Source: Chiloscyllium plagiosum (lineage: Eukaryota). Taken from it: 62,640 bases of DNA. This document shows, one piece after another, positions 1,310 to 49,549 of the stretch; the stretch's first letter is position 1; every line of letters starts with the position of its first letter. The notes beneath the pieces are model-generated. The model saw only the letters and a list, made by a program, of their open reading frames with translations. It searched no databases and was not told where the DNA came from. The stretch lies in assembly GCF_004010195.1 (NCBI RefSeq), contig NC_057752.1, positions 10,010,512 through 10,073,151 on the forward strand, in the 5' to 3' direction. Both the position numbers and the translations under genes were made by a program.

Positions 1310-2595
1310 TCTGCCTGTAATTGACTCACATTCATTTTCGCCAAACTGATTATTTTACTTACCTGTAGAAGCTTTAAGAGTTTTGTGCTAGATTGAATTC
1401 ATATTCTGTTTTCTCTTCCCCTTTTCTTCGTCCTCTTTTATTGTATTCTATAAACTTCCCAATCCTCAGATTTACTGCTCTTTCTGGCAACTTTGTACAC
1501 CTTTTGGGTTGGTAAATTAAGTGTTTTTAAATCTCTTTTGGCAACTTAGAGCAGAGAGGATGGAAGCTAGGCAGTTGCATGCTCCTCTTGCAGAATGTGG
1601 GAGATAGGGGTCACCACTTGTGTCCCTGCTGACTTCACCTGCGAGAAGTGCACCCAACTCCAGCTCCTCACAGACCGCGTTAGGGAATTGGAGCTGGATG
1701 AACTTCAGATCGTTAGTGAGGATTATGAGGAGGTAGTCACAGCTAAGTTACAGGATAAAGGTAGCTGGGTGACCATCAGGAGAGAGAAAGGGAAAAGGCA
1801 ATCAGTGCAGGAATCTCCTGTGGCCGTTCCCCTCAATAATAAGTGTACCGCTTTGGATACTGTTGGGAGGGACCCCACCAGGGGAAAGCCACAGTCGCCA
1901 GGTCTCTGGCACTGAGTCTGGCTCTGTGGCTCAGAAGGGAAGGTGGAGAATTGGAGAGTGATAGTGATAGGAGATTCACTCGTGAGAGGAACAGACAGGA
2001 GATTCTGTGGTCGCGAACGAAACTCCCGGTGGTGTGTTGCATTCTGGATGCCGGGATCAGAGATGTCTTGGATTGAATCTCCAGGATTCTTAAGGGGGAG
2101 GGAGAAAAGTCGTGGTACACATCGGTACCAATGACATAGCTAGGAAAAGGGATGAGGGCCTGCAGAGTGAATATAGGGAATTAGGTTGGAAGCTAAAAGG
2201 ACGAGCAGAGTAGTAATCTCAGGGTTGCTACCGGTGCCACAGGCTAGTGAGGCAGGAACAGAGACAGCAAGTGCAGCTGAACACGTGGCTGCAGAGCTGG
2301 TGTAGGAGGGAGGGCTTCAGATATGTGGATCATTGCGATACCTTCTTGGGTAGGTGGGACCTGTACACGGAGGACGGGTTGCCCCTGAACTGGAGGGACA
2401 CCAATATCCTGGGCGGGAGGTTTGCTAGAGCTCTTAGGGAGGGTTTCAACTAGTTTGGCAGAGGGATGGGAACCAGACCTATGGATCAGAGGATGGGGCA
2501 GCTGGTGAACAGGCAGATACAGCATGCAGAGAGACTGTGAGGAAGGATAGACAGTTGATAGGGCAAAGTTGCAGTCAGTGTGATGGGTTGAAGTT

Positions 2596-2911
2596 TAGAT
2601 TAGATTCTTTACAGTGTGGGAACAGGCCCTTCGGCCCAACCAGTCCACCCCGACCCTCCCGAAGAGTAACCCATCCAGACCCAGTTCCCTCTGACTAATG
2701 CACCTAGCACTATGGGCAATTTAACATGGCCAATTCACCTGACCTGCACATCTTTGGACTGTGGGAGGAAACTGGAGCACCCGGAGGAAACCCACGCAGA
2801 CACGAGGAGAATGTGCAAACTCCATACAGACAGACTTCCGAGGCTGGAATCGAACCTGAGACCCTGGCGCTGTGAGGCAGCAGTGCTAACCACTGTGCCA
2901 TCGTGCCACCC
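2596..2911 (-). mobile_element. HE1-type V-SINE (tRNA head, V core, CR1-like tail)
   Basis: The minus strand has a TGGCACAGTGG A box, a GGTTCGATTCC B box, the V core GGAGTTTGCACATTCTCC..GGGTTTCCTCCGGGTGCTCC and an (AATCT)n tail. Confidence 0.9.
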
Positions 2912-4848
2912 AATGTGTGTCTATTTTAATGCAAGAGGTGTCAGGAATGCGGGTGATGAACTTAGAGCATGGATCAGTACTTGGAGCTCAGGTGTTGTGG
3001 CCATTAGGGAGACTTGGATATCACAGGGGCAGGAATGGTTGTTGGATGTTCTGGTGTTTATATGTTTCAAAAGGAATAGGGAAGGAGGTAAAAGAGGTGG
3101 GGGAGTGGCATTGCTAATCAGGGATAGTATTACAGCTGCAGAAAGGGAGGTCGTTGAGGAGGGTTTGTCTATTGAGTTACTATTGGTGTAAGTCAGAAAC
3201 AGGAAAGGAGCAGTCACTTTATTGGGAGTTTTCTATGGACCCCCCAATAGTAACAGAGACACTGAGGAGCAGATTGGGATGCACATTTTGGAAAGGTGCA
3301 GGAAAAGTAACAGGGTTGTTGTCATGGGTGACTTCAACTTCCCTAGTTTGGATGGAGCAGATTCTGTCAGGTGTGTCTGGGAAGGATTTCTGTCTCAATA
3401 TGTAGATAGGCCAACTAGAGGGGAGGCCATATTGGATTTGGAGCTTGGCAATGAATCACGTCAGGTGTCAGATTTCTTGGTGGGAGAGCATTTTGGTGAT
3501 AATGATCACAACTCCCTGGCCTTTACGATAATGGAGAGGTATAGGAGCAGATGGTATGGAAAACTATTTAATTAGGGGAGGGGGAATTACAATGCTATTA
3601 GGCAGGAACTGTGGAACACAAATTGGGAACAGATATTCTCAGGGAAGTGCATGACCGAAATGTGGAGGTTGTTTAGGGAGCACTTGCAGCCAGTGCCGGA
3701 TAGGTTTGTCCCACTGAGGCAAGGAAAGGATGGTAGGGCGAAGGAACCTTGGATGACAAGAAATGTAGAACATCTAGTCAAGAGGAAGAAGGAAGCTTAC
3801 TTAAGGTTGAGGACGCAAGGATCAGGGCTGTAGAGGGTTACAAGGTAGCCAGGAAACAACTGAAGAATGAGCTTAGGAGAGCTAGAAGTGGACATGAAAA
3901 AGTCTTGGCGGGTAGGATTAAGGAAAACCTCAAGGCATTCGATGTGAGGAACAAGAGGATGGCCAGAGTGAGGGCAGGGGCAATCAGGGATGGTGGAGGG
4001 AACTTGTGCCCAGAGTTGGAGGAGGTAGGGGAGGTCCTTAATGAATACTTTGCTTCAATATTCACTGCAAGAGGGACCTTGTCATTTGTGAAGACAACAT
4101 GAAACAGGCTGATAAGCTCAAACAGGTTGATGTTAAGAAGGAGGATATGTTGGAAATAAGGATAGATAAGTCCCCTGGGCCAGCCAGATGTACCCAAGGT
4201 TGCTACGGGAAGCGAGGGAAGCAATGATCTTTGCGTCCTCACTGTCCACTGGAGTAGTACCAGATAATTGGAGGGTGGCAAATGTTATTCCCTTGTTCAA
4301 GAAAGGGATAATTGTTGGAATTACAGGCCAGTTAATCTTACGTCGGTGGTGAGCAAATTATTGGAGAGGATTCTGAGAGACAAGATTTACGATTATTTGG
4401 AAAAGCATAGTTTGATTAGAGATAGTCAGCATGGCTTTGTGAGGGGCAGGTCATACCTCACAAACCTTATTGAATTCTTCGAGGATGTAACAAAACACGT
4501 TGATGAAGATAGAGCAGTAGATGTTGTGTATATGGATTTTAGCAAGGTGTTTGATAAGGTTCCCCATGGTTGGCTCATTCAGAAAGTAAGGAGGCATAGG
4601 ATATAGGGAAACCTATCTGTCTGGATACAGAATTGCCTGGCCCATGGAAGACGGAGGGTGATAGTAGATGGAAAATATTCAGCCTGGAGCTCGGTGACCA
4701 GTGGTGTTCTGTTCTGGGAGCTCTGCTGTTTGTGATTTTTATAAATGACTTGGATGAGGAAGTGGAAGGGTGGGTTAGTAAGTTTGCTGATAACACGAAA
4801 GTTGGTGGAGTTGTGGATAGTGTGGAGGGCTGTTGTAGGTTGCAACAC

Positions 4849-12968: not shown

Positions 12969-14993
12969 ATAGTCCTTTTCATTGCATCATAGTAGATCTA
13001 AAATCACATGTCCTCGGGTTATCTCCTCAACATACTGCTCTAGAAATCCATCCCTAACACATTCCAGAAATTCATCCTGTACAGTTTGAGTGCTCAATTC
13101 GTTTACCCAGTCTACATGCAGATTGGAGTCACCCATGATAACAGTGTTGCCCATGCTGCATGCTTCTCTAAGTTCTTGATTAATAACATGTCCCACACTA
13201 GCACTACTGTTTGGTGGCCTGTAAATAACTCCAACCCATTGTGCTGTCCTTTTTTGTTTCTTAGTTCCACCCAACCAGATTCCACAAATTGTTCTTCCAA
13301 TCTGAGATCCTCACTTACAAAAGTACTGTGTCTGTCCCCTATTTTCAGTGCAACTCCACCTCCTTTTCCTTCTTAAGCCTCAAATATCCTTTGGTAATTC
13401 AGTTCCCAGTCCTGGTCACTGTGCAGCCATATTTGTTTCATGGCAATTAGATCATTCCCATGTATCTCTATACATGCCTTTAACTAGTCTACCCTTGCAA
13501 ATGCCACATCGTTCAGGTAGAGTATCCTTAGCTTTGTGTTGACATTATTCTGCTTTCAAAGCATATTTGATGCTCAGCTTAGTTTCTCCTCCTCCCAAGT
13601 ATCTTCTCAACTTCCTGTTACCATCTTTACTTCCTTCCGATTTGTGTTACCCTACTGGTTCCCATCCCCCTGACAATTAATCAGTTTAAATTAATCTCAG
13701 CAAATCTCCCTGCAAAGATATCAGTCCCAGTCCCGTTGCAGTGTGACCTGTCCAGCTTGTACAGGTCCCACCTGCTCAGAACCGGACCCAATTGCTCAGA
13801 ATTCTGATGCCCTTCTTTATCCACCTGTTCCCTGGCCACATATTCAATTGATTAGTCCTTGTATTCACTAGCATGTGGTACTGGGAGTAATCCTGAGATT
13901 CTGTGTTCCTGCTTTTTTAAAATTTCCTTTCTAGCTGCCTGAAATATGCCTTCAGCACCTCATCCCTCTTCCTGCCTTGCTTGTTGGTACCAATGTGGAC
14001 CACGACTTGTGACCGATCCCTCTCCCACCAGAAGAATGTCATGCAGCTGCTCTGTGACATTTTTGACCCTGGCACCAGGGAAGCAACACACCTTTCTGGA
14101 ATCAATACGCTTTCCTGTAGTCCCATCTACTACCACAAAAATACCTGTCTGATCCCCTGACTATGGAATCCCCTCGAAGTATTGCTCTTCTATTATTTTT
14201 CCTCTTCCGCTGTACAGCTGAACCTTCCACAATGTCATGAGATTGATGGCAGACCACTTGGAAAGCAGTGACAGGATTATATTGCATGCTTTGTGCCAGT
14301 GTTAAAGACATCCCCGGGCTGGAGAGGAAGTTGCAGTGGAGGGGAAGGATCTGAGTTTTGTCTTCCAAGTTGGTACCAACAACATTGATAGGACTAAACA
14401 AGTGGTTCTGCTGACAGATTTTGAACAGTTGGGACCGAAACAAAAAAGCTGAATCTCCAAGGTAATAATCTTGGGATTACCACTTGAGTCACAGGCAAAC
14501 TGGTATAGGGTAAAGAATGTGGATCTCAAAGATTGAGGTGGGAGGAATGGGTTTCAGTTTCTGGAAGGGTGGTACCAGTACTGGGGTAGAAAGCTTTTCC
14601 AATGATACAGGTTTCAATGTAGTCATCTGTGGAGAGAAAACAGAGAAAGGTCACTGAACTCGAAACATTAACTAATTTTTCTCTTCACAGCTGCTGCCAG
14701 ACCTGCTGACATTTTCTAGCAATTTCTGATTTTTATTTCAGATTATCAGACCCGCAGTTTCTTGTTTTGTTCACTTTAACCATGCTGGGACCAGTATTCT
14801 GGCAAATTAAATAACTAGGGCTGTAAAGATGGCTTTAAACAAAATAGAGGGAAAGAAGGGTTGGAAGAGGAGAAATGTAGGTTTCCAAAGTTTAGTGATT
14901 GGAACCGAGTGAACGTCATTGACTGAGGTCCTTGCTTGGGGTTGTTAACCTGGGCCAATTAGGAAAATTGTGGCTGACCACTGGAAACAGGAG

Positions 14994-15871
14994 CGGAGGT
15001 ATGTCAGGGTGGACTGAGAGCCAGCAGCGGCATGGGGTGGACTGAGAGCCGGCAGGGGCATGGGGTGGACTGAGAGCTGGCAGGGGCATGGGGTGGACCG
15101 AGAGCCAGCAGGGGCATGGGGCGGACTGCCTTAGAGTGGCCGGAAGGTGGGAGGGATGGGCAACTTGCTGGGGTGGGGGGGTTACCTGTATTCTATGCAC
15201 TGTTTCTCATTTGATTGGACTGTCCTGTATGTATTTGGTACTATTAATTTTGTAATGAATGAAACTGGGATTTGAGGTTGTGGTGTAAAATTCCAAGCAG
15301 TGGAATGTGGTGAAACGGTTAAAAGTTATGTCCCAATACATGTGTGAATCTAACCGGAATGGAGGTGTTGCTTAGTCCCGTGTGAATCTTCTTATCTGTA
15401 TGTAACCAGAATGGAATGTGTTTTTCTGCTGTTCACATGAATGTTTATATCTGGAAAAGAGTATATCAGCCGGAAAAGTCTCCAGTTCGGTGAGTCTGCT
15501 CCGGGGTTACGTTTAACCGCCGAGCGTGGGTTGTTGGCAACCGCTCTACGAGAACTGACGGCTCCCAGTTTTTGTAACATGTAGAGTGAGTATAAGCCAG
15601 ACCCGTTGTGCGACGCTGCGGGGAATAAAATGCCCATATTCTAGCAGTCTCGCCTCTTGGTCGTTTGTTCTGTGTCAGACTACTCTCCTACGAACCTGAC
15701 CTTGAGAATTTTTTAAAACAGAGGTTTGTCCTCATTTCCCTGTAAACTGGTTGAACGGTGGGGTTTGGGGCCTGTCTTTGCTGCTCCTCTCCCTTGTAAA
15801 ATTGCTGTTTCCCTGTATACAGCTGTTAATGTTAACTGTTTGTTTGTAATTTGTGCTGGTTAATAAAAAAA
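14994..15871 (+). mobile_element. Non-autonomous Tx1-related element, unit A (carries a nested solo LTR)
   Basis: Its 5' region is shared with units B and C and includes about four copies of a 28-bp repeat (GGACTGAGAG at 15011, 15039, 15067; variant at 15095). It ends in AATAAAAAAAA followed by ATAAACAGGAG. Confidence 0.7.
15279..15720 (+). mobile_element. Solo LTR (442 bp)
   Basis: It has TG...CA ends and a perfect 5-bp TSD GAGGT (15274-15278, 15721-15725). TATAA lies at about 15591 and AATAAA at about 15624. The empty site GGATTTGAGGTTTGTCCTC is visible in unit B at about 16528. Confidence 0.9.
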
Positions 15872-15882
15872 ATAAACAGGAG

Positions 15883-16705
15883 AGGAGGTGTGTCAGGGCA
15901 GACTGAGAGCTGGAAGGTGGGTAGGCCGTCCTGATTAGATTAGATTACTTACAGTGTGGAAACAGGCCCTTCGGCCCAACAAGTCCACACCGACCCGCCG
16001 AAGCGTAACCCACCCATACCCCTACATTTACCCCTTTACCTAACACTACGGGCAATTTAGCATGGCCAATTCACCTAACCTGCACATCTTTGGACTGTGG
16101 GAGGAAACCGGAGCCCCCGGAGGAAACCCACACAGACACGGGGAGAACGTGCAAACTCCACACAGTCAGTCGCCTGAGTCGGGAATTGAACCCGGGTCTC
16201 AGGCGCTGCGAGGCAGCAGTGCTAACCACTGTGCCACCGTGCCGCCCACTAAGTCCTGAGTTCGATTGTCCAGAGGAAGGAGCGGGATGCGCTGTCCTAG
16301 AGGTGGCTGGAAGGTGTGTCAGGGTGGACTGAGAACTGGAAGGTGCATGGGGTGGACTGAAAGCCAGAAGGGGCGTAGGGGTGGGCTGCCTTAGAGTGGC
16401 CAGAAGGTGGGATGGACAGGTTGCTTGCTGGGTTGCTGGGGGGGCGGGGGTCTGTATTTTATGCACTGCTTTTTATGTAATTGGACCGTCTTATGTATTT
16501 GTTACTATTTTGTGATGATGGAAAGAGGGATTTGAGGTTTGTCCTCATTTCCCTGAAAACTGGTTGAACGGTGGGATTTGGGGCCTGGCTTTCCTGCTCC
16601 TCTCCCTTGTAAATTTGCTGTTTCTCTGGAAACAGCTGTTAATGTTAATTGTGTTGTAAACTGTATTATTTAATAAAATACTGGTTAATAAAATAAAAAG
16701 AATAT
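15883..16705 (+). mobile_element. Non-autonomous Tx1-related element, unit B (carries a nested V-SINE)
   Basis: It is flanked by ATAAACAGGAG at 15872-15882 and 16706-16716. The 5' end is nearly identical to unit C, the 3' part is homologous to unit A, and it has an A-rich tail with AATAAA. Confidence 0.75.
15935..16248 (-). mobile_element. HE1-type V-SINE, full length
   Basis: It has a tRNA head, V core and (TAATC)n tail, with TSD GTCCTGA at 15928-15934 and 16253-16259. Confidence 0.92.
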
Positions 16706-16716
16706 ATAAACAGGAG

Positions 16717-18955
16717 AGGAGGTGTGTCAGGGCAGGCTGAGAGCTGGAGGGTGGGCAGGCTGTCCTGAGCTCCATTGTTCAGAGGAAGGAGCAGGACGGG
16801 CTGTCCTTGAGGTGGCCGGAAGGTGTGTCAGAGCGGGCTGAGTGCCGCAGGCTGCGTCGCAGCAGACGACCTTGTGGCCGGAAGGTGGGAGGGCTGGGTC
16901 ATTTGCTGGGTTGCCGGGGGTGTCTGTGTTATGTGCACTGTTTTATTGTTGGGTTGATCCAACTGTCTTGTATGTGTTTGTGTCTATTGTTTTCACTTCA
17001 GTGAGTTAAGGTTTGTTTGCGTTTCACTGTAAATTGTTACATGGTTGGGTTTGGGGTTTGGCCTTGCAGCTCCTTTCCCCTGGACCTTCCACCTTTGCTG
17101 CCGCCACCTGGACCTTCCACCTTTGCTGCTGCTGCCGTCACCTGGACCTTCCACCTTTGTTACCCTCACCTGGACCTTCCACCTTTGCTACCCTCACCTG
17201 GACCTTCCACCTTTGTTACCCTCACCTGGACCTTCCACCTTTGCTACCCTCACCTGGACCTTCCGCCATTGCTGCCCTCACCTGGACCTTCCACCTTTGC
17301 TGACCTCACCTGGACCTTCCACCTTTGCTACCTTCACCTGGACCTTCCACCTTTGCTACCCTCACCTGGACCTTCCACCTTTGCTGCTGCTGCCCTCACC
17401 TGGACCTTCCATCTTTACTGCTGCTGCCATCACGTGGACCTGCTCCCACTCTCAGCAGGGAGAAGGGGGAGGCAGCAGAGGGCGACCGCCCAGAGGAGGG
17501 TTCGGCTGGGTTTGTCTTCAATGAGGTTTTAGTCTTCCTTGTGCCCCCAACCAAGATTCCCCTTCTCTCATTCGAGGAACTCCGGGACTTTATTGCGAAT
17601 ACCTGTGATCGCTATAATAGGATATCGTTGGTTCTCGACTGCTGGCAAGTGTTTTGGCTGGTCTTCTCGTTCACACGTCCTGCTGTCCATACACCCAGTC
17701 TGGCCCAGAGTGACCGGCAGCAGTTCAGAACGTTACTCTCTGCATGCAGAGGGAGAGCGAGGGATCTTTATGCCTCTTCCCCTGTCCTCCCAGTAAGTCT
17801 TTTCACAGTTTCTCTGCTCATGGTTGCACACTGAAGACTACCATAGGTAGCCTCAACATCAACGGCAGCAGGGAGTGTCAATCCAGATTCCTGACCTTGG
17901 GCCTTCAGAACGGGAAGTATGCAGTGTGCTTCCTGCAAGAAACCCATACCACCCAGGAAGAAGAAGCCTGACTCCATCGCCTTCGCTTTTGGAGCGTCTA
18001 GCATCGACAGCTTGTGTGTTTTGTGGGCGTACGCCTCCTGCATTCTAGCAGCCTCCATGCCGCAGGTGTTGTGCAATGGCCATCACCTGGTGTGGGCGGA
18101 ACTCCTTCCCCCCGTTCGGGACCTGGCTGGGATCCGCGTACTGGCACTTCAACAACCTGCTGCTCGAGGACGAGCGGTTCCGGGACTCGTTTTGTCAGTT
18201 CTGGGCCGGCTGGAGAAGGAAGCGGGGGGGGCATCCCCCCCCTTAAGATGGGACATGGGCAACACTCACGTCTGTGTCTTCTGTCAGGAGCACGTGGCGG
18301 GGTCAACAAAGAGGCGGAAATCCAGGATCAAGGAATTGGAGAAGAAGATGTTTGATCTGGAGTCATGTCTCAGTCAGCCCGATGTGGGCCCGGCTGGTGG
18401 GGCTGTGTGTTGTGGGAGGGGGTGGCGGTGGTGGTGTCGTGATGATGGTGATGGTGGTGGTGTATGATGAGAAGAAGGCCTCGCTCTGAGACCTGCAGCT
18501 CGTTGAGTCCTGGGGCATGTACATGGGGTCACGGATCTGGCTCCTCCAAGACCTGGATCGCAGCTTCCCATTCTGCTCACTGACACCCATCAGCAGCTCC
18601 TGGCCGACAATGGGTCCCTTGTCTTGGACCTGGACACCATCAGGGCCCAGATTCACATCTATTGCACAGCTTTGCTCTCTCCAGATCTGTCCAGCGAGGA
18701 TGCTTTTAGAGTTTTGTGGGAGCTCAACCTGGAGAATGCTGGAAGGCTCAACACTCCCGTCATGTTTGAGGAACTGACTGGCACCCTCGACCGGCTCTCG
18801 CGAGGCACGTCCCTGTGGCTGGATGGGCTGACTGTAGAGTTCTTCAGGGCATTCAGGGATGTCCTGAGGGGCGACTATGCGAAGGTCTTTACGTCTGGAG
18901 AGCCGCCCCTTTTTTGGTGGAATATTAATAAAGTTATTTACAACTGGGAAAAAAA
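16717..18955 (+). mobile_element. Tx1-clade (L1 group) non-LTR retrotransposon, 5'-intact and internally deleted, unit C
   Basis: ORF2 remnants are TIGSLNINGSR and FLQETH (APE), GSAYWHFNNLLLEDERF, WDMGNTHVCVFCQEH..IKELEKKMFDLES and LDGLTVEFF, all closely resembling Xenopus Tx1 ORF2 as recalled. The 3' end is GGTGGAATATTAATAAAG...GGGAAAAAAA. Confidence 0.85.
17079..17440 (+). repeat. 28-bp minisatellite (CCTGGACCTTCCACCTTTGCTACCCTCA), roughly a dozen copies, inside the Tx1 element
   Basis: The unit recurs at 17169, 17197 and onwards. Some units carry GCT expansions. Confidence 0.95.
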
Positions 18956-20244
18956 TATAACCAGAATCCCCTCAGTTAAGGGACTGACTCCAAGCTGGCT
19001 GGCCACAGCCAGTGTACTGTGCATAAGTAAATAAAGGGTGACCTGGTGATGGGATACCAGCCTCTGCAGTTATTTCACAAAGCAAAAGCATATGGCAGCA
19101 TTCCAGGAAAAATTCAGAAAAGTATATTCAGGACAGTTTAACAGAAGAATATGTTGTGGATCCAAGCAGGAATCAGGCCATTTTAGCTCTGGTAATGTGT
19201 GATGAGGCAGATTTAATAAATGACCTCAGAGTAAAAGATTCCCAAGCAAACAGTGACCACAAAGAGGTGGGATTTAGTGTTTAATTTGAGAGTGAGAAAA
19301 TTAAGTCAGTAACAGCTGTACTAAAGGTATGGTAATTCCTTCCAAGGGAAGGTGGGCAGAGATGGCTAAAGTAAACTGGGAAAGAAGTTGAGCAGGAATG
19401 ATAGTTGAGGAACAATGGCAGATGTTTGCAAAATAGTTCATGACTGACAGTGAAGATATATCCCAGTGAAAAAAGAAGATTCTAGAAAGGGAACAATGGT
19501 TTGCTAGAGAAGTTAGGGATAGTATCAAATTGAAAGAAAAAGAAACATACAATATGGCAAAGGTTAGTGGTATACCAGAGGTTTAGGAGAGTTTTTGAAC
19601 CTAACAAAAGATGGCAAAAAAATAGAAATGGTCAGTAACAGCTCCCTTAAATATATAGAAAGGAAAGATGAGACCAAAATGAACATGGGCCTCTTAGAGA
19701 ATGAGGCTGGGGAAAATAATAATTGGAAACCAGAAAATGGCAGAAAAATTGAATAGATACTTTGCATCCGTCTTCATAGTACAAGATGCTAATAATATTT
19801 TCAAAAATATCAAACAATCCAAGGGCAAAAGGAGAAGAGGAAATAACTACAGTAACTATCACTGGAGCAAAAGTAATAATGAAACTAATGATGCTAAAGG
19901 CTGATATGTTCCTTGGACCTGATTGGGTGCATTCTAGGATATGAAGGGGAGTAGTAACTTTAGACAGCGGATGCACTGGTAGTAATCTTCCAGGAATCCT
20001 TAGATTCTAGAAAACTCCCAGAAGCTTGAAAATTGCCAGTGTAACACCCTTGTTCAAAATGGGAAGAAGACAAAACAAAACTGGCAAAGATAGGCAAGCT
20101 AGCAAAACGTCTGTCATTGGGAAAATGTTTGAGTCTATTATGAAGGATGTAATTGTAGAACATTTAGAAGCACATAATTTAATCAAGCAGAATCAGCATG
20201 GCTTATGAAATGGAAATCATGCTTGAAAGTTTTATTCGAATTCG

Positions 20245-21479: not shown

Positions 21480-22260
21480 ATAAGGGAGTTGGGACATCAT
21501 GTTGAGGTTGTATAGTATGTTGGTGAGGCCACTTTTGGAGTATTGTATACAGTTCTAGTTATCATGCTATAGGAAGGAATTTTTTTCCTTTTTTAATATT
21601 TTATTAAACCGTACACAGTTTACAAACAATTGACATTAACAGCTGTATACAGAGAAACAGCAATTTACAAGGGAGAGGAATGGCAAATCCAAACCCCAAA
21701 CCCTACAGTTCAACCAGTTTTCAGCGAAATGAGGACAAACCTCAAATCCCACTTTCAGTAGGAAGGATATTATTAAATTGGAGAGGGTTCAGAGAAGTTT
21801 TACCAGGGTGTTGCCGGGACTAGAGGGTTTGAGTTATAAGAAGAGGCTGGATAGGCTGGGTTCTTTTTCACTGGAGCATAGGAGGTTAAGGGGTGATCTT
21901 ATGGAGGTTAATGAAATCATGAGGGGCATAGATAAAGTGAATAGCAAAGGTCTTTTCCTGAGGGTGGGGGAGTTCTAAACTAAGGGGCGTACTTTTAAGG
22001 TGAGAGGAGAAAGATTTAGAAAGGACCTGAGGGGTAACTTTTTCTCACTGTGTGGTTCATATGTGAAATAAACTGCCAGAGGAAATGGTAGATACAGTTA
22101 CAGTCACAACATTTAAAAGACATTTGGACAGGTGTATAAATAGGAAAGGTTGAGAGGGATCTGGGCCAAATGAAGTCAAACGTGACTAGTTTGGGAAACT
22201 TGGTCAACATGGACAAGTTGGACCAAAGGGTCTGTTTCCATACTGTATGAGACTGTAATC
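21480..22260 (+). mobile_element. CR1 3' fragment
   Basis: It encodes LVRPLLEYCIQF and ERVQRSFTRVLPGLEGLSY..RLRGDL, followed by a CR1 3' UTR. Confidence 0.85.
21580..21757 (-). mobile_element. 5'-truncated copy of the unit A/B 3' end, inserted in CR1
   Basis: The reverse complement matches GGGATTTGAGGTTTGTCCTCATTT...CTCTCCCTTGTAAATTGCTGTTTC plus an A tail. A TSD TAGGAAGGA lies at 21570-21578 and 21759-21767. Confidence 0.85.
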
Positions 22261-25371: not shown

Positions 25372-25960
25372 CTATACCACTTATGCTCACATCCAAATCA
25401 TTTATATGAATGATGGAAAGTAGTGGACCCAACACCGATCCTTGTGGCACTCCTCTGGTCACTGGCCTCCAGTCTGAAAAACAACCCTCCACCACCACCC
25501 TCTGCCTTCTACCTTTGAGCCAGTTCTGTATCCAAATGGCTAGTTCTCCCTGTATTCCGTGAGATCTAACCTTGCTAACCAGTCTCCCATGGGGAACCTT
25601 GTCGAACACCTTACTGAAGTCCATATAGATCACATTGACCAATCTGCCCTCATCAATCCTCTTTGTTACTTCTTCAAAAAACTCAATCAAGTTTGTGAGA
25701 AGTGATTTCCCACACACAAAGCCATGTTGACTATCCCTAATCAGTCCTTGCCTTTCCAGATACATGGACATCCTGTCCTTCAGGATTCCCTCCAACAACT
25801 TGCCCACCACCGACGTCAGGCTCACTGGTTTATAGTTCCCTGGCTTGTCCTTATCACCTTTCTTAGACAGTGGCACCACATTAGACAACCTGCAGTGTTT
25901 GGGCGCCTCATCTGTGACTATCGATAATACAAATATTCTCAGTAAGAGGCCCAGCAATCG
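25372..25960 (-). mobile_element. CR1 RT fragment
   Basis: ORF 25298-25957 contains [26 protein letters not shown] and [10 protein letters not shown]. Confidence 0.92.
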
Positions 25961-44300: not shown

Positions 44301-46792
44301 TCAGGGGATCATGGTTGTTGGGGGAAGGCAGGAGAATGGGGTCGAGAAACATATCAGCCACGATCGAATGGTGGAACAGAGCCAGTGGGCCAAATGGCCT
44401 AATTCTGCTCCTACATCTTATGTTCTTATGAACTAATTGCTCATAAACATAAGATGTACTTTCATTTACTATGGTCTTAGTAGAGAGGTTTGCAACATAA
44501 TGCATACAAGCTAAAGAAGGATCAACTGCATTCATGTTTCAAATCCACTGGGAAAAACATACAAGCTTTGACTGTGAGCACAGACACATTTTCAAAATCT
44601 ACTCAATTCAATTATTTCGAACTATTCTTGATCCTAAATCTGTCTCACAAACTGTACTTGGTTCAGGGGTCTGAATTTTGCAGATGACGTTTCATAATTA
44701 AAGCAGTATTTTTAAAAGGATAATTTGAATTAAATAATCGAATAGATTCTGAAACAACTCCACAGAGGTTGGTATCCTCTGTGTATAGTACTTGCCACTG
44801 ATCCAGCTCCCTCAGAGCCAGCTCTCAGAGTAAACAGAACCTCTGATACTCCTGCTTCTGTCTGTCAGCCAGTGCTCTCAGATCAGGTTAACAGCCCCCA
44901 ATCAGGCAACTCATTTTATGAGGTCCACCTGGCTGACCTCGGTCTAAGACTGGGGACGTGGACCTGTTCTTTATCTTGTAGCTCCTCCTGAGATGTTTTT
45001 GCACAAAGTCCAGTTCCTCTGACTCAGCCTCGGATATGGGCGGTGTGTACCAGACCGTAGCCTGCCTCTTGCACCTGGAGCACCTCGGAAGAAATTCATC
45101 CTCTTCTTCAGACGGTAAAGGCATTAAAGCTGCGATATCCACCGTGTCCATCTCGGACTGCAATGTTTCTTCGATACTAGACAAAGGGGGAGAACCCACA
45201 GGTTCTGACAACCTTTCAAGCTGTTATGAGGGGCTGAGCATGTTTTATTCCTGCCCCATTTGCAAGTTTGCAGCTTTCATGTCATCCATGTGCTTGTTCA
45301 GGACTGTCTCACCTAGCTGAACTTTGTACACATCATGGGACCTGACCTCGTGTCAACCATACCTCTTACCCATTCATTTCCATGGTTTCTGCACCAAACT
45401 TTGTCCCTTGAAGTAAACTGTCCCTCTTGCTTAGAGGACTTCTGTGTCCCGCACTGGTTTCCTGATGCTGTTTCAGCCGTCCCCCCAGATCAGATTTAAC
45501 CTGGTACAGAGTCTTCTCCCCATTAGCAACTCTGCTGGAGCTAACCCTGTGGATGCACGAGGGGTGGTCTTATAATAAATAGGAACTGGGACAGTTTGGT
45601 ATCTAGTGAAACTGTAGGCTGTTTCTTTAAGCCTGCCTTCAAACGTTTGGGCTGCTCCTTCCACCAGACTATTGGATGATGGATGTTATGGAGCTGTACT
45701 TATATGCTGAATGCCTGAAAATACCTGAATTTGCTGCAAGTAAATGATGGCCCGTTGTCTGTGACCAACACTTCCGGAGCCCGTGTATTGCAAAAGATGC
45801 TCAGTTTTTCCATTGTTGTCCCCGTGTTTGACAAATGAATTCTATACATGTCCAATCACTTTGAGTAGCTGTCCACAATGACGAAGAACACTGTGCCCAC
45901 GAAAGGGTCGGCAGAGTCGACATATAACCGAGTCCAGGGGTCATCCAATCACTCCCCCTGTGGGGAGATGCTGGTGGTAATTTTTGTCCTTGTTGGCACT
46001 CTGGGCACTGCCCCACCAGCGCGGCCATATCTGCATCCAATCCTGGCTGCCAGATTTAACTTCTCACCATCATCTTCACTTTGGACATTTCTGGATAACC
46101 CTGGTGGAGCTCAGCCAGATGGTGACTTTTGCTTGGGGCAATCACTCTTGCTCCTTATAATAAAATGCCGAATCTACAGTGATCCGGTCTAACCAGGTCT
46201 AGAAAGGTTTCAGTTCTGGTTGAGATGGCCCTTTTGTTCCTCCCAACAGCCCCACCAGCTGTTTTACTTTTGCCAGGACCAGATCTTTCTGCAGTAAACA
46301 GTCTGATATTGTCAGCTGTGACTGGGTGTCCAGAAAGTTTAAAAACAGAGCAGACCCTTCCAGTACTGGCACCCCTTGATGGTCCATCCGCTAGCGGGTG
46401 GCAGCTCAATGCATCCACATTTGCTACTTGTCCTCCTGGACAGTGTTCCAACTTGTATGCACTCAGTGAGAGCCCACTGCTGAATTTGGCCTGAAGCTAT
46501 GGGTGGCATAGCCTTGTCCTCTTTGAGTAGCCCTAGCAGGGGTTTGTGGTCTGTTACTGTTACAAACTTACATCCATAAAGGTATTGGTGGAATGTTCTC
46601 ACACCAAAGATGACCACCCAACCTTCCTTGTGTATCTGGGTGTATTTGCACTCTGCATCAGCCAAAGTTCAGGAAGCATGCACTATTGGGTGTTTCTCTC
46701 CATTGGACCATCTGTGAGCCAACACTACCCCAATACTGTGTGGGGAAGTATTGCATGCCAGCACCAGATCTTGCTTGGGATCACAGTGTCGT

Positions 46793-47280
46793 GAGTGTGG
46801 TGCTGGAAAAGCACAGCAGGTCGTGCAGCATCCGAGAAGCAGGAAAATCGACTTTTCGGGCAGGAGCCCTTAATCAGGAATGAGGCTTGTGAGCCGAGAG
46901 GGTGGAGAGAAACTGGATTTCACTCGTCTCCTCATTTCCCCTCCCCCCACCTTATCCCAGTTCCAACCTTCAAACTCGGCCCTCATGATCTGTCCTACCA
47001 GTCCATCTTCCTTCCCACCTGTCCGTTTTACCTTCCTCTCCGACCTATCACCATCATCCCCACTTCCATCTCCCTATTGCACTCTCAGCTACCTTCCTCT
47101 CAGCCCCACTCCCTCCCATTTATCTCTCCACCCCCTCAGCTCACAAGCCTCATTCCTGATGAAGGGCTCTTGCCCGAAACATCGATTTGCCTGCTCCTCA
47201 GATGCTGCCTGACCTGCTGTGCTTTTCCAGCACTCCACTCTCAACTCTAATCTCCAGCATCTGCAGTCCTTACTTTCCCC
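46793..47280. mobile_element. Penelope-like element with inverted pLTRs inside Gypsy pol
   Basis: About 46795-46900 is inverted relative to about 47135-47240. A hammerhead core CTGATGA lies at 47156. Confidence 0.85.
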
Positions 47281-47366
47281 TACAATCAGTGGGACCTGAA
47301 GAGTCTGGAACCAAAGTTGTACCCTTAATCTGTAAAGGTTCCCCGGTATAGATTCTTAGTCTAGCT

Positions 47367-47685
47367 GTGGGCGGCACGGTGGCACAGTGGTTAGCACTGC
47401 TGCCTCACAGCGCCAGAGACCAGGGTTCAATTCCCGCCTCAGGCGACTGACTGTGTGGAGTTTGCACGTTCTCCCCGTGTCTGCGTGGGTTTCCTCCGGG
47501 TGCTCCGGTTTCCTCCCACATCACAAAGATGTGCAGGGTCAGGTGAATTGGCCATACTAAATTGCCCGTAGTGTTAGGTAATGGGTAAATGTAGGGTTAT
47601 GGGTGGGTTTCGCTTCGGCGGGTCGGTGTGGACTTGTTGGGCCGAAGGGCCTGTTTCTACACTGTAATCTAATCTAATCTAATCT
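47367..47685 (+). mobile_element. HE1-type V-SINE, full length and young
   Basis: It has the head GGGCGGCACGGTGGCACAGTGG, a GGTTCAATTCC B box, the V core and an (AATCT)4 tail. Confidence 0.93.
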
Positions 47686-48912
47686 GAGGCCTAACGCAAA
47701 CATAAGGATTGGATTCCAGAGTGAATTTCGTTAAAGACAGGTTCTGAACTCACTGATACAGTATTAACCTCCATTTGAACTGGGTGACCACTTAACCAGA
47801 TGATTATTTTGCTTGGTTCTGATTTGGATGTTGCTAAGCAACTTAACTGTTGCAAACTACTTGGAGGTGTGCTTTCCAGGGCGTGCATTCTCCAGGATAG
47901 CGGCCTATGTGTTCACTTACTCAATTCAGAATGAGACTCCACTACCGGGACTCTTTTGCTGTCTGGAATCTGCACACTGGCAGCAACGATAATGGCTTGC
48001 TGGCGTACATTCTGAAGAACACGTCAACCGTTTGGCTGAGGCTTGGTTTTGTTTTGGGGTTTTGCTGTGCGCTGACCGAGAGTCCCTCTGTTCAGGATAT
48101 GTCCTGAGTGAAGCTGTGCAGTGGTCTTCACTCAAGTGTGGTCCCCAAGTTCAGTCAGACTGGCGAGGGTGTCCACTTCCATTGGAATACCCTGCAAATC
48201 ATATGCTCCACTTGCTGCATTCTCCAATGACAAAGCCAGTTGTGGTGCCTGTTTGAAGTCGAGTTGGGCTTCAGCTTGCAGGGACTTTTGTATGGTTACA
48301 TCATTAATCCCACATACCAAATGGTCTCTCAGCATTTCATTACGGGTTAAACCAAAGTCACATGCCTTTTCAAAAATCCCAACACGGAATCCCCTAGTTC
48401 TCAAACTGATGAGTAAAAACTATAGCACCTCAAAGTTAGAGGAGGCTTGGAGTCGTGATATTCCTTAACTAAATCCATCAACTCTTGAAAGGTTTTAGTG
48501 TCTGGTGCCTCAGAGAAAGTTAGGCTCCTAATAATCAAAAAAGCTGCAAGTCCACAAGCTGTCAGGAGAATTACTCATTGCTTTACATCTGCCCCAGTGT
48601 CATCTGCCTGGAAAAATATAATGCATTCTTTCCACATACTGGACCAAGTCTTCAACAGCAGGGTCAAAAGAGTCAAGCTTCCCAAATAAAGGCATGATGC
48701 CAGAAATGTTTACCCCAACTCAAAGATAACTGTTACAAGCAAATTTCGTCAGAAGCACTTTATTTCTGTCATTGCCACTGACATTATTCCACAAAGGCCG
48801 GTATCCTGTCACCAAGTTACCCTTTATTTACATGTGCATAGTACTTGGCACTGGTCCAGCTTCCTCAGAACCAGCTCTCAGAGTGAGCAGACCCTCTGAC
48901 ACTCCTGTTTAT

Positions 48913-49167
48913 TTTTTATTTGTGACAGGAGGTCTGACATTCCTGTTTATTATTTTTCTTTTTTAAAACTTTTCCCCACACTACCGCCTAACAGGAGTAG
49001 TGCTTATTTTTCCCCAGCACCCATGTCGTGTGTGTGCAGGTGTAGGACATAGTGAAGAACAACAAGTGCATAAATCTTTATTTATATTCCACCACCAGGA
49101 AGAAAGGAAACACCAGACTGGCCAGTGACAAGCAGTGCCTTTCTCGACAAAGGGCAATGCTGCGTGA
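48913..49167 (-). mobile_element. Two stacked 5'-truncated Tx1-type 3' ends inside the Gypsy 5' LTR
   Basis: The target GACA(C/T)T(C/T)CTGTTTAT appears three times: 48898-48912, 48936-48950 and 49168-49182. The longer insert has GGTGGAATATAAATAAAG on the minus strand, like the unit C 3' end. Both have A-rich tails. Confidence 0.75.
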
Positions 49168-49549
49168 GACACTTCTGTTTATGTCTGTCAGTGAGGGCTC
49201 CCTGATTGGATCAGGTTAACAGCCCCAATCAGAGAACTCATATTCTATGAGGTCCACCAGGCTGACCTCGTTACAATGACTACACATCCACAATTGAAAT
49301 GTAATAGAGCAGAGCAAAAGTTGATTAAATTGCAAGAGCTTCAAGGAGAAGGCAGGTGAATGTGGCTGAGAAACATATCAGCCAGGACAGTATGGGGCAA
49401 GAATCGCTTAATTCTGCTCTTATATCTTATGGTCAATTTACCAGGTTAGTCAGATTTATCCTCCCAATCACTCAGGGCATCACATTTCCAGGCAAATGTA
49501 CAACATGCTTTTGATAGAAGAACAAATGCTGAGATCTAAAAATCTTCAC

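Follow-up and report, generated by a model that had tools for sequence, protein, structure and literature searches.

Background

Residence of one transposable element at a fixed site in another is known from the Tx1 element of Xenopus, whose insertion into Tx1D has been listed as a safe-haven strategy (PMC6719617), and other transposable elements have been listed among the targets of long interspersed nuclear elements (LINEs; PMC8869645). In vitro, the Tx1L endonuclease nicks hardly any sequence other than its target, and a hairpin loop of the protein has been linked to target choice (PMC1950540). Here we describe a Tx1-clade LINE of the shark Chiloscyllium plagiosum, together with a non-coding retroposon (the passenger), whose copies recur at one site within a Gypsy long terminal repeat (LTR). 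The analysis followed up a reading made from the letters alone (the sequence-only reading) of a stretch of 62,640 nucleotides (contig NC_057752.1, positions 10,010,512 to 10,073,151), referred to below as the window.

Two crocodilian Tx1 families, Tx1-8_Crp and Tx1-4_AMi, were reported to prefer LTR retrotransposons (Kojima 2015, PMC4494074), and were described in a group that clusters with Keno; the main text of that paper gives no site, orientation or LTR class for them. According to the same source, SINEU-1, SINEU-2 and SINEU-3 share the Mariner target of Tx1-Mar, often in tandem, and their transcription from the flank has been proposed, while R2 in 28S ribosomal DNA takes its transcription from the target and has target sequence at its 5' end. 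The idea of a parasite of a parasite, LTR targets included, was therefore already known (PMC4494074, PMC6719617, PMC8869645). The sequence-only reading had supposed it to be undescribed, which is not correct, and the shark system is a sharper form of known homing, not a new principle.

Insertion at a single LTR site

The genome was searched with two 3' ends from the window, that of the units in its first insert array (2,527 candidates) and the insert at 48951-49167 (3,583 candidates), and the top 30 loci were analysed for each. Candidates numbered 2,527-4,142 per query overall; the results are samples of top matches, not a census. After removal of two self-matches and one overlapping locus, 57 3' ends were kept. 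A same-strand LTR half was found within 1.5 kb of 24 of 29 passenger 3' ends and of 23 of 28 Tx1 3' untranslated regions (UTRs), 47/57 in total, compared with 0/29 CR1-type control loci (p 9e-15), and only 2 of the 57 loci had LTR matches on the opposite strand. An 11-nt site motif lay within 60 nt of the tail at 26/57 ends, compared with 3/878 for the A-rich tracts of control DNA, and the exact 8-mer site was present at 19/57 versus 2/878. A first, looser motif test matched 335/878 background tracts and 17/29 controls, and was replaced by these tighter motifs. That the Tx1 system targets one LTR site in a fixed orientation, well beyond any AT-rich preference, is close to certain, and the enrichment of genome-wide flanks on which the sequence-only reading had staked its claim was thus found. 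By Kojima's rule (one repeat type in more than 20% of flanks) the family counts as target-specific among these top matches.

Host LTR copies fell into two subtypes, R (the type at 48779-49284) and Q (the type at 14891-19077), with an internal region common to both. By script, 7/29 R copies and 20/29 Q copies had an A-tail at the site. Scored by eye, 8 R copies were occupied, 20 empty and 1 other, with 21, 7 and 1 for Q, two of whose loci share one junction; these occupancies are biased upward, as the LTR queries were taken from occupied LTRs. Across 98 tailed junctions, the bases before AA[AC]CAG varied among none, T and TAT, which would place the bottom-strand nick inside the TATA box to within 1-3 nt. 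LTR-like overlap at 5' junctions was mostly about 10-19 nt, as read by eye from a listing that includes spurious rows. Age polarity within arrays was 9 versus 5 of 15, with one tie (p 0.42).

The host LTR

Empty genomic copies of the host LTR are about 230 bp long with TG...CA ends, and mean pairwise identity among LTR copies was 86% in the top-hit sample. The internal region runs from RNase H to integrase (Pfam RT_RNaseH, E 2e-11; rve, E 0.015), an order that, together with the TG...CA ends and 5-bp target-site duplications, is that of Ty3/Gypsy elements. Its named full-length relatives were mostly K02A2.6-like Gypsy pol proteins, and the best match of the RNase H was a catshark protein. No env was seen in the host copies, which are decayed. 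The element may belong to the Mag clade. The TATAA sequence was retained in 11 of 17 listed empty R copies, and in 10 of these 11 an initiator (Inr)-like motif followed 28-30 nt downstream; many copies also have CCAAT upstream and AATAAA downstream of the site. The target is therefore probably the TATA box of the LTR, and it is TATA-Inr geometry only that points to a promoter function.

The autonomous Tx1 element

Long copies comprise a head, a repeat-rich 5' region, open reading frame 1 (ORF1), ORF2 and a 3' UTR matching 48951-49167. Across 82% of the query, ORF2 shared 49% identity with the Tx1L ORF2 of Xenopus (P14381), with 57-67% identity in the reverse transcriptase (RT) region and 45-47% in the endonuclease over aa 1-233. 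One copy (L124) matched Pfam RVT_1 at E 8e-33 and Exo_endo_phos at E 0.001, the latter below cut-off; upstream, the frames of ORF1 are broken, and one copy gave a weak zf-CCHC match (E 0.038). In an RT tree of 38 rows, midpoint-rooted and with no L1 outgroup, nine shark RTs formed one clade with a stingray, a sturgeon and five turtle proteins and Tx1L (support 100/99), the stingray protein being sister of the shark LINE. The A-tail, 5' truncation and target duplication that are hallmarks of Tx1 are all present. By these comparisons the autonomous element is a member of the Tx1 clade and of the Tx1L lineage, the placement that the sequence-only reading had suggested be checked.

Copies of ORF2 averaged 95% pairwise identity versus 86% for the LTRs, both in top-match samples, and thus look younger than their hosts. 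With thousands of genomic candidates per query, the system represents a large share of the repeat content of this genome, and annotation would mistake it for satellites or LTR subfamilies. Two loci (L134, L158) have A-tails right after the repeat-rich 5' region, which suggests early polyadenylation or internal priming. In another (L221), at least four near-identical 228-bp units of the Tx1 3' UTR stand in tandem, through either local amplification or an assembly artefact.

A non-coding passenger

By alignment with a full copy of 1.84 kb that lies between LTR halves (L235), window units A, B and C1 derive from the 3' portion of a non-coding retroposon of about 1.84-1.85 kb, distinct from Tx1. 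Its longest ATG frame was 32-74 aa in four copies. The L235 passenger showed no similarity beyond its LTR-like head to four long Tx1 copies and contained no match to Tx1L ORF2 by tblastn, and Rfam (E 0.1) gave no match in five loci, three of them passenger loci. The passenger does not resemble a short interspersed nuclear element (SINE), having a length of 1.84 kb, an LTR-derived head and no Rfam match, nor an internally deleted LINE, as its ends show no Tx1 derivation among the four long copies compared; it may come from a Tx1 subfamily outside those four. We considered whether units A and B could be an alternative Tx1 3' UTR, as one locus (L116) suggested. This was rejected because 14 of 15 copies carry other, non-Tx1 sequence upstream of the middle segment, and L116 is accordingly a chimera.

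As the passenger shares its site, orientation and A-tail with Tx1, it was most simply moved in trans, and we infer that the Tx1 machinery moved it. Internal repeats of the L235 passenger resemble LTR sequence just past the target site, and units A, B and C1 all begin at such an LTR-like repeat. Truncation of the passenger 5' end may be guided by homology between these repeats and the LTR.

LTR-derived heads, chimeras and transcription

Tx1 5' ends carried an LTR-R motif followed by a GT-rich spacer of 9-41 nt in 28/30 cases (the query's own locus counted), whereas the spacer after this motif was only 2-3 nt in 29/29 R LTRs. Heads directly followed the target site in 13/30, and in another 13/30 they followed a variably truncated end of the element's own ORF2 with the 3' UTR. 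Among passenger 5' ends, 18/25 started at the Q site, and a head variant found in 14/25 was present in 0/29 Q LTRs. Because spacer and variant differ from those of the LTRs, the heads travel with the RNA, and the master copies were read through from upstream DNA. A Tx1 subfamily with its own ORF2 end before the head was seen at L112, L114, L119, L122, L127, L128 and 13 of the loci L199-L228; this variably truncated piece extends over about the initial 65 nt of the 3' UTR and meets the head at a nearly fixed joint that has no A-tail, and L119 has two such junctions in tandem.

Copies that include their neighbours were also found. A 339-nt block of the second window LTR (48845-49182), both junctions included, has an approximately 94% copy on contig C24. 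This copy lies at a new target site and terminates in an A-tail that is likewise new, and is therefore itself a retrotransposition. Three full-length U6 sequences fused to the Tx1 3' end lie in one array (L237:356-462, 707-813 and 2781-2887), and another contig holds a fourth (L230, C89242:5822-5959) in which both junctions recur. All four carry about 100 nt of the final Tx1 3' UTR and lie at the LTR site, and they appear to be one chimera that was still moving after its formation. Rfam, applied to 20 loci partly picked for non-Tx1 tailed inserts, found only the U6 in L237. At eight loci (L135, L138, L147, L149, L153, L156, L040 and L152), A-tailed inserts at the site matched neither family nor Rfam; these may be RNAs of the cell, or further repeats, brought to the site in trans.

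Reads of four runs were compared with one LTR-head junction. One RNA run gave 134 reads, nearly all on the LTR left half; a second run gave none, and starts showed no pile-up. The C24 block and the U6 chimera retain junction sequence from only about 10-13 nt past the TATA box, which does not fit transcription that simply starts from the LTR initiator and indicates that these RNAs began further upstream, whether at a different promoter or inside an array that an LTR promoter precedes. That the elements use the LTR promoter is plausible, although we would not call it probable. With similar reserve we put forward promoter piracy, in which a Tx1 family and a passenger that is a novel type of retroposon (long, non-coding and LTR-headed), neither with a promoter of its own, would exploit an endonuclease retargeted to the LTR TATA box, such that each new copy lands in sense directly behind an intact promoter with CCAAT and TATA. 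If this is true, thousands of dead LTRs serve as landing pads and power supply, even for a moving U6 chimera. If the LTR promoter does drive the elements, the question raised by Kojima in 2015 of how promoter-less Tx1 passengers are transcribed would be answered.

The inserts in the window

As listed in Table 1, the first LTR of the window is a solo LTR whose halves are held apart by an array of inserts. Its CAAAG duplication was confirmed, and both halves aligned to the second LTR at 48779-49284 on the reverse strand (BLAST identities of 75% and 80%, over 57 and 70 nt respectively). Copies of the target site read AAACAGGAG at 14985-14993, ATAAACAGGAG at both 15872-15882 and 16706-16716, and ATAACCAGAA at 18957-18966. 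The sequence-only reading had placed three tandem, same-orientation elements between them; the target copies and coordinates were right, and the array consists of at least four pieces. Its view that units A to C were copies of one Tx1 element had to be given up, since A, B and C1 belong to the passenger and C is composite. The Tx1-type ORF2 remnants reported in unit C were borne out by matches to Tx1L ORF2 at aa 1-47, 246-370 and 286-503 (E 2e-5 to 5e-15), and a Pfam scan of seven unit C frames gave no useful match. Unit C2 is, as its alignments indicate, an older, deleted relative of the autonomous family, and the 28-bp array before it probably arose through expansion of a repeat in the Tx1 5' region.

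The LTR at 48779-49284 is not solo, but belongs to a decayed element as its 5' LTR; the flanks of the LTRs at 44750 and 49284, which bear on whether the two bound one element, agree at only 3/5 bases. Two A-tailed insertions had been read in it. Both tails are at the site, and one insertion is body-less, with only 27 nt of LTR-like sequence. Nor are the five hits of the window all demonstrably independent, as had been assumed, because one is body-less, two share their start and one block has the copy on C24. The fragment noted as off-target is indeed within CR1-type sequence; it has a duplication of 9-10 bp, and its junction is AT-rich but without CAGGAG. Elsewhere in the window, 25412-25939 (- strand) holds a fragment of another LINE RT, 25% identical to Tx1L ORF2, from a repeat with several window copies.

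Table 1. Features of the two occupied LTRs and their surroundings, in window coordinates
Position	Strand	Feature	Remark
14886..14890	+	Target-site duplication CAAAG of host solo LTR, left copy	Read from the sequence
14891..14993	+	Left half of the host Gypsy LTR (Q subtype); target site at its end (14985-14993)	Aligns to 48779-49284 and to empty genomic copies
14994..15871	+	Unit A: 5'-truncated non-coding passenger retroposon with A-tail	Maps to 3' part of full-length copy L235
15279..15720	.	TG...CA element nested in unit A, 442 bp, solo-LTR-like, unrelated, with 5-bp duplication GAGGT	Partial match in L123
15872..15882	+	Target-site copy at boundary of units A and B	
15883..16705	+	Unit B: 5'-truncated non-coding passenger with A-tail	
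15935..16249	-	SINE nested in unit B, 7-bp flanking duplication; many window copies	
16706..16716	+	Target-site copy at boundary of units B and C	
16717..17082	+	Unit C1: passenger copy, same starting base as unit B, 3' end lost	
17079..17441	+	28-bp tandem array at junction of C1 and C2	No match among other loci retrieved
17435..17830	+	Unit C2: remnant upstream of ORF2 (ORF1 side)	70-76% identity in patches to long copies
17831..18911	+	Unit C2: Tx1 ORF2 remnant, endonuclease to RT start, frameshifted, internal deletions	72-82% to long genomic copies
18912..18956	+	Short Tx1-3'-UTR-like piece with AATAAA, then A-tail	28-nt matches, 89%, to Tx1 3' UTR copies
18957..19077	+	Host LTR, Q subtype, right half with AATAAA and terminal CA	
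19078..19082	+	Target-site duplication CAAAG of host LTR, right copy	Read from the sequence
21580..21757	-	Off-target 3' passenger fragment inside CR1-type element	
~44750..44943	-	Third copy of the LTR (R subtype), empty and with part deleted; probably the 3' LTR of the element from 49284	
44944..48778	-	Internal region of decayed Gypsy element with fragments of RNase H and integrase, SINE-interrupted	Pfam; common to other LTR-flanked loci
48779..48910	-	5' LTR, R subtype, right half, then primer-binding-site-like sequence	
48911..48950	-	Insert with no element body: LTR-like sequence of 27 nt from target site, and A-tail	
48951..49167	-	Autonomous Tx1 3' UTR and A-tail, 5'-truncated, after 13-15 nt target duplication	Same 3' end closes long ORF2-bearing copies
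49168..49284	-	5' LTR, R subtype, left half with CCAAT and TATA-like box	

Proposed mechanism and alternatives

The site, orientation, enrichment, independent truncations, kinship with Tx1L, heads and read-through copies observed above are best explained overall, and we think probably, by a LINE of the Tx1L lineage that inserts by target-primed reverse transcription at the LTR TATA site. In this mechanism an autonomous LINE, with ORF1, an ORF2 encoding an APE endonuclease and RT, and an A-tail, would nick the TATA box on its bottom strand, at a point inside ATAT/AAA with a spread of 1-3 nt judged from the junctions, and the freed T-rich end would prime on the A-tail of the RNA. The second cut would usually produce a duplication of about 10-19 nt that restores the site, with the result that head-to-tail arrays accumulate. 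The same machinery would carry other A-tailed RNAs in trans, among them the passenger, the U6/Tx1 chimera and pieces of other arrays copied by read-through. Both families gained their LTR-derived heads from an earlier target; such heads probably aid 5' joining through homology, and they show transcription of master copies from upstream DNA. It is likely that the endonuclease itself reads bases of the LTR site.

Several points weigh against this explanation. About 6 of the 57 sampled 3' ends lacked the motif and the LTR alike, and one copy in the window is off-target, so that the targeting is strong and not absolute. Occupancy was overestimated by the choice of queries, and only the top 30 of 2,527-4,142 candidates per query were sampled. 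No sequence common to the passenger and the Tx1 3' UTR was detected, and their partnership is drawn from the tail, from the site that both use and from a single chimera (L116). Finally, the hairpin loop of the shark endonuclease is 3 residues shorter than that of Tx1L and is without the RDGH tip; the Tx1L data thus transfer by analogy only.

The strongest competitor leaves the choice of site to promoter state, with TATA DNA that is bent by TATA-binding protein or nucleosome-free, or a protein tether, drawing in an enzyme whose own nick is loose and AT-rich. The context of the bottom-strand nick, TTT/AT, is L1-like, the off-target window copy likewise sits at an AT-rich junction, and both LTR subtypes are hit though they differ immediately after the site. 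In 146 kb, 0/13 TAA[AC]CAGG sites outside LTRs were A-tailed, a small sample, which suggests that the short motif alone may be insufficient. The motif was nevertheless rare at other AT-rich tracts (3/878), LTRs that are old and diverged (mean pairwise 86%) are hit, and the endonuclease of the nearest relative to have been characterised is sequence-specific (PMC1950540). We regard this alternative as unlikely.

Shared junctions raise the question of whether the inserts go back to one or a few insertions in a master LTR that Gypsy replication, duplication or gene conversion then multiplied. Besides the C24 copy of the 339-nt block, units B and C1 have an identical start base (47/51 nt identical), and the four U6 chimeras have both junctions in common. 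Even so, at least 12 different 5' truncation lengths (167-732 nt) adjoin an intact LTR left half, two LTR subtypes hold several inserted families, and at L197 the two LTRs of one element hold different inserts; the many truncation points and the difference within L197 show that hitchhiking is not the main cause. The C24 copy, with its new tail and target, arose by its own retrotransposition, the inserts appear younger than the LTRs (95% versus 86%), and 0/8 LTR-flanked stretches had a sense-strand open frame above 161 aa. Spread by the host thus has very little probability. Provided that the top-match samples are not grossly atypical, we give practically no credence to a generic A-tail preference with survival bias, by which L1-like insertions at any TT/AAAA would persist in neutral LTRs, since, for all that insertions in dead LTRs are neutral and off-target copies occur, the CR1 controls gave 0/29, the inserts keep to one position and one orientation within a 230-bp repeat, and opposite-strand LTR matches were restricted to 2/57 loci; the tighter motif counts (26/57 versus 3/878) also contradict it.

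Comparison with known systems

A literature search, with Repbase and Dfam outside its scope, found no account of this shark family, its TATA site, LTR heads or long passenger, nor of a re-mobilised U6/Tx1 chimera at an LTR site. R2 has a restriction-like endonuclease and joins its 5' end by homology. The shark system is like R2 in having target-derived 5' sequence and perhaps in drawing its transcription from the target, and unlike it in its APE domain and in a target that is not a host gene. Both the shark family and the crocodilian LTR-targeting families home to LTR retrotransposons, a likeness drawn by description only. Heads of SINEU elements come from U1 or U2 small nuclear RNA and the elements are mostly shorter than 500 bp (PMC4494074), whereas the shark passenger is 1.85 kb with an LTR-derived head; a U6-headed chimera in the shark stands beside the small nuclear RNA heads of SINEU.

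The closest comparison is with Tx1L. Both elements combine an APE endonuclease with an RT and have a transposon as target at one site, which in the shark is the probable TATA box of a Gypsy LTR and for Tx1L is the piggyBac-type Tx1D; the LTR-derived 5' head is a shark feature that differs from Tx1L. A precisely mapped target, a putative RNA polymerase II core-promoter motif, is thereby added to the lineage of Tx1L, which is among the few LINEs with an endonuclease of biochemically proven specificity. As the two proteins are 49% alike but differ in target and in hairpin loop, they offer a direct test of how APE endonucleases switch targets, and the pair should be of interest to builders of site-specific insertion tools.

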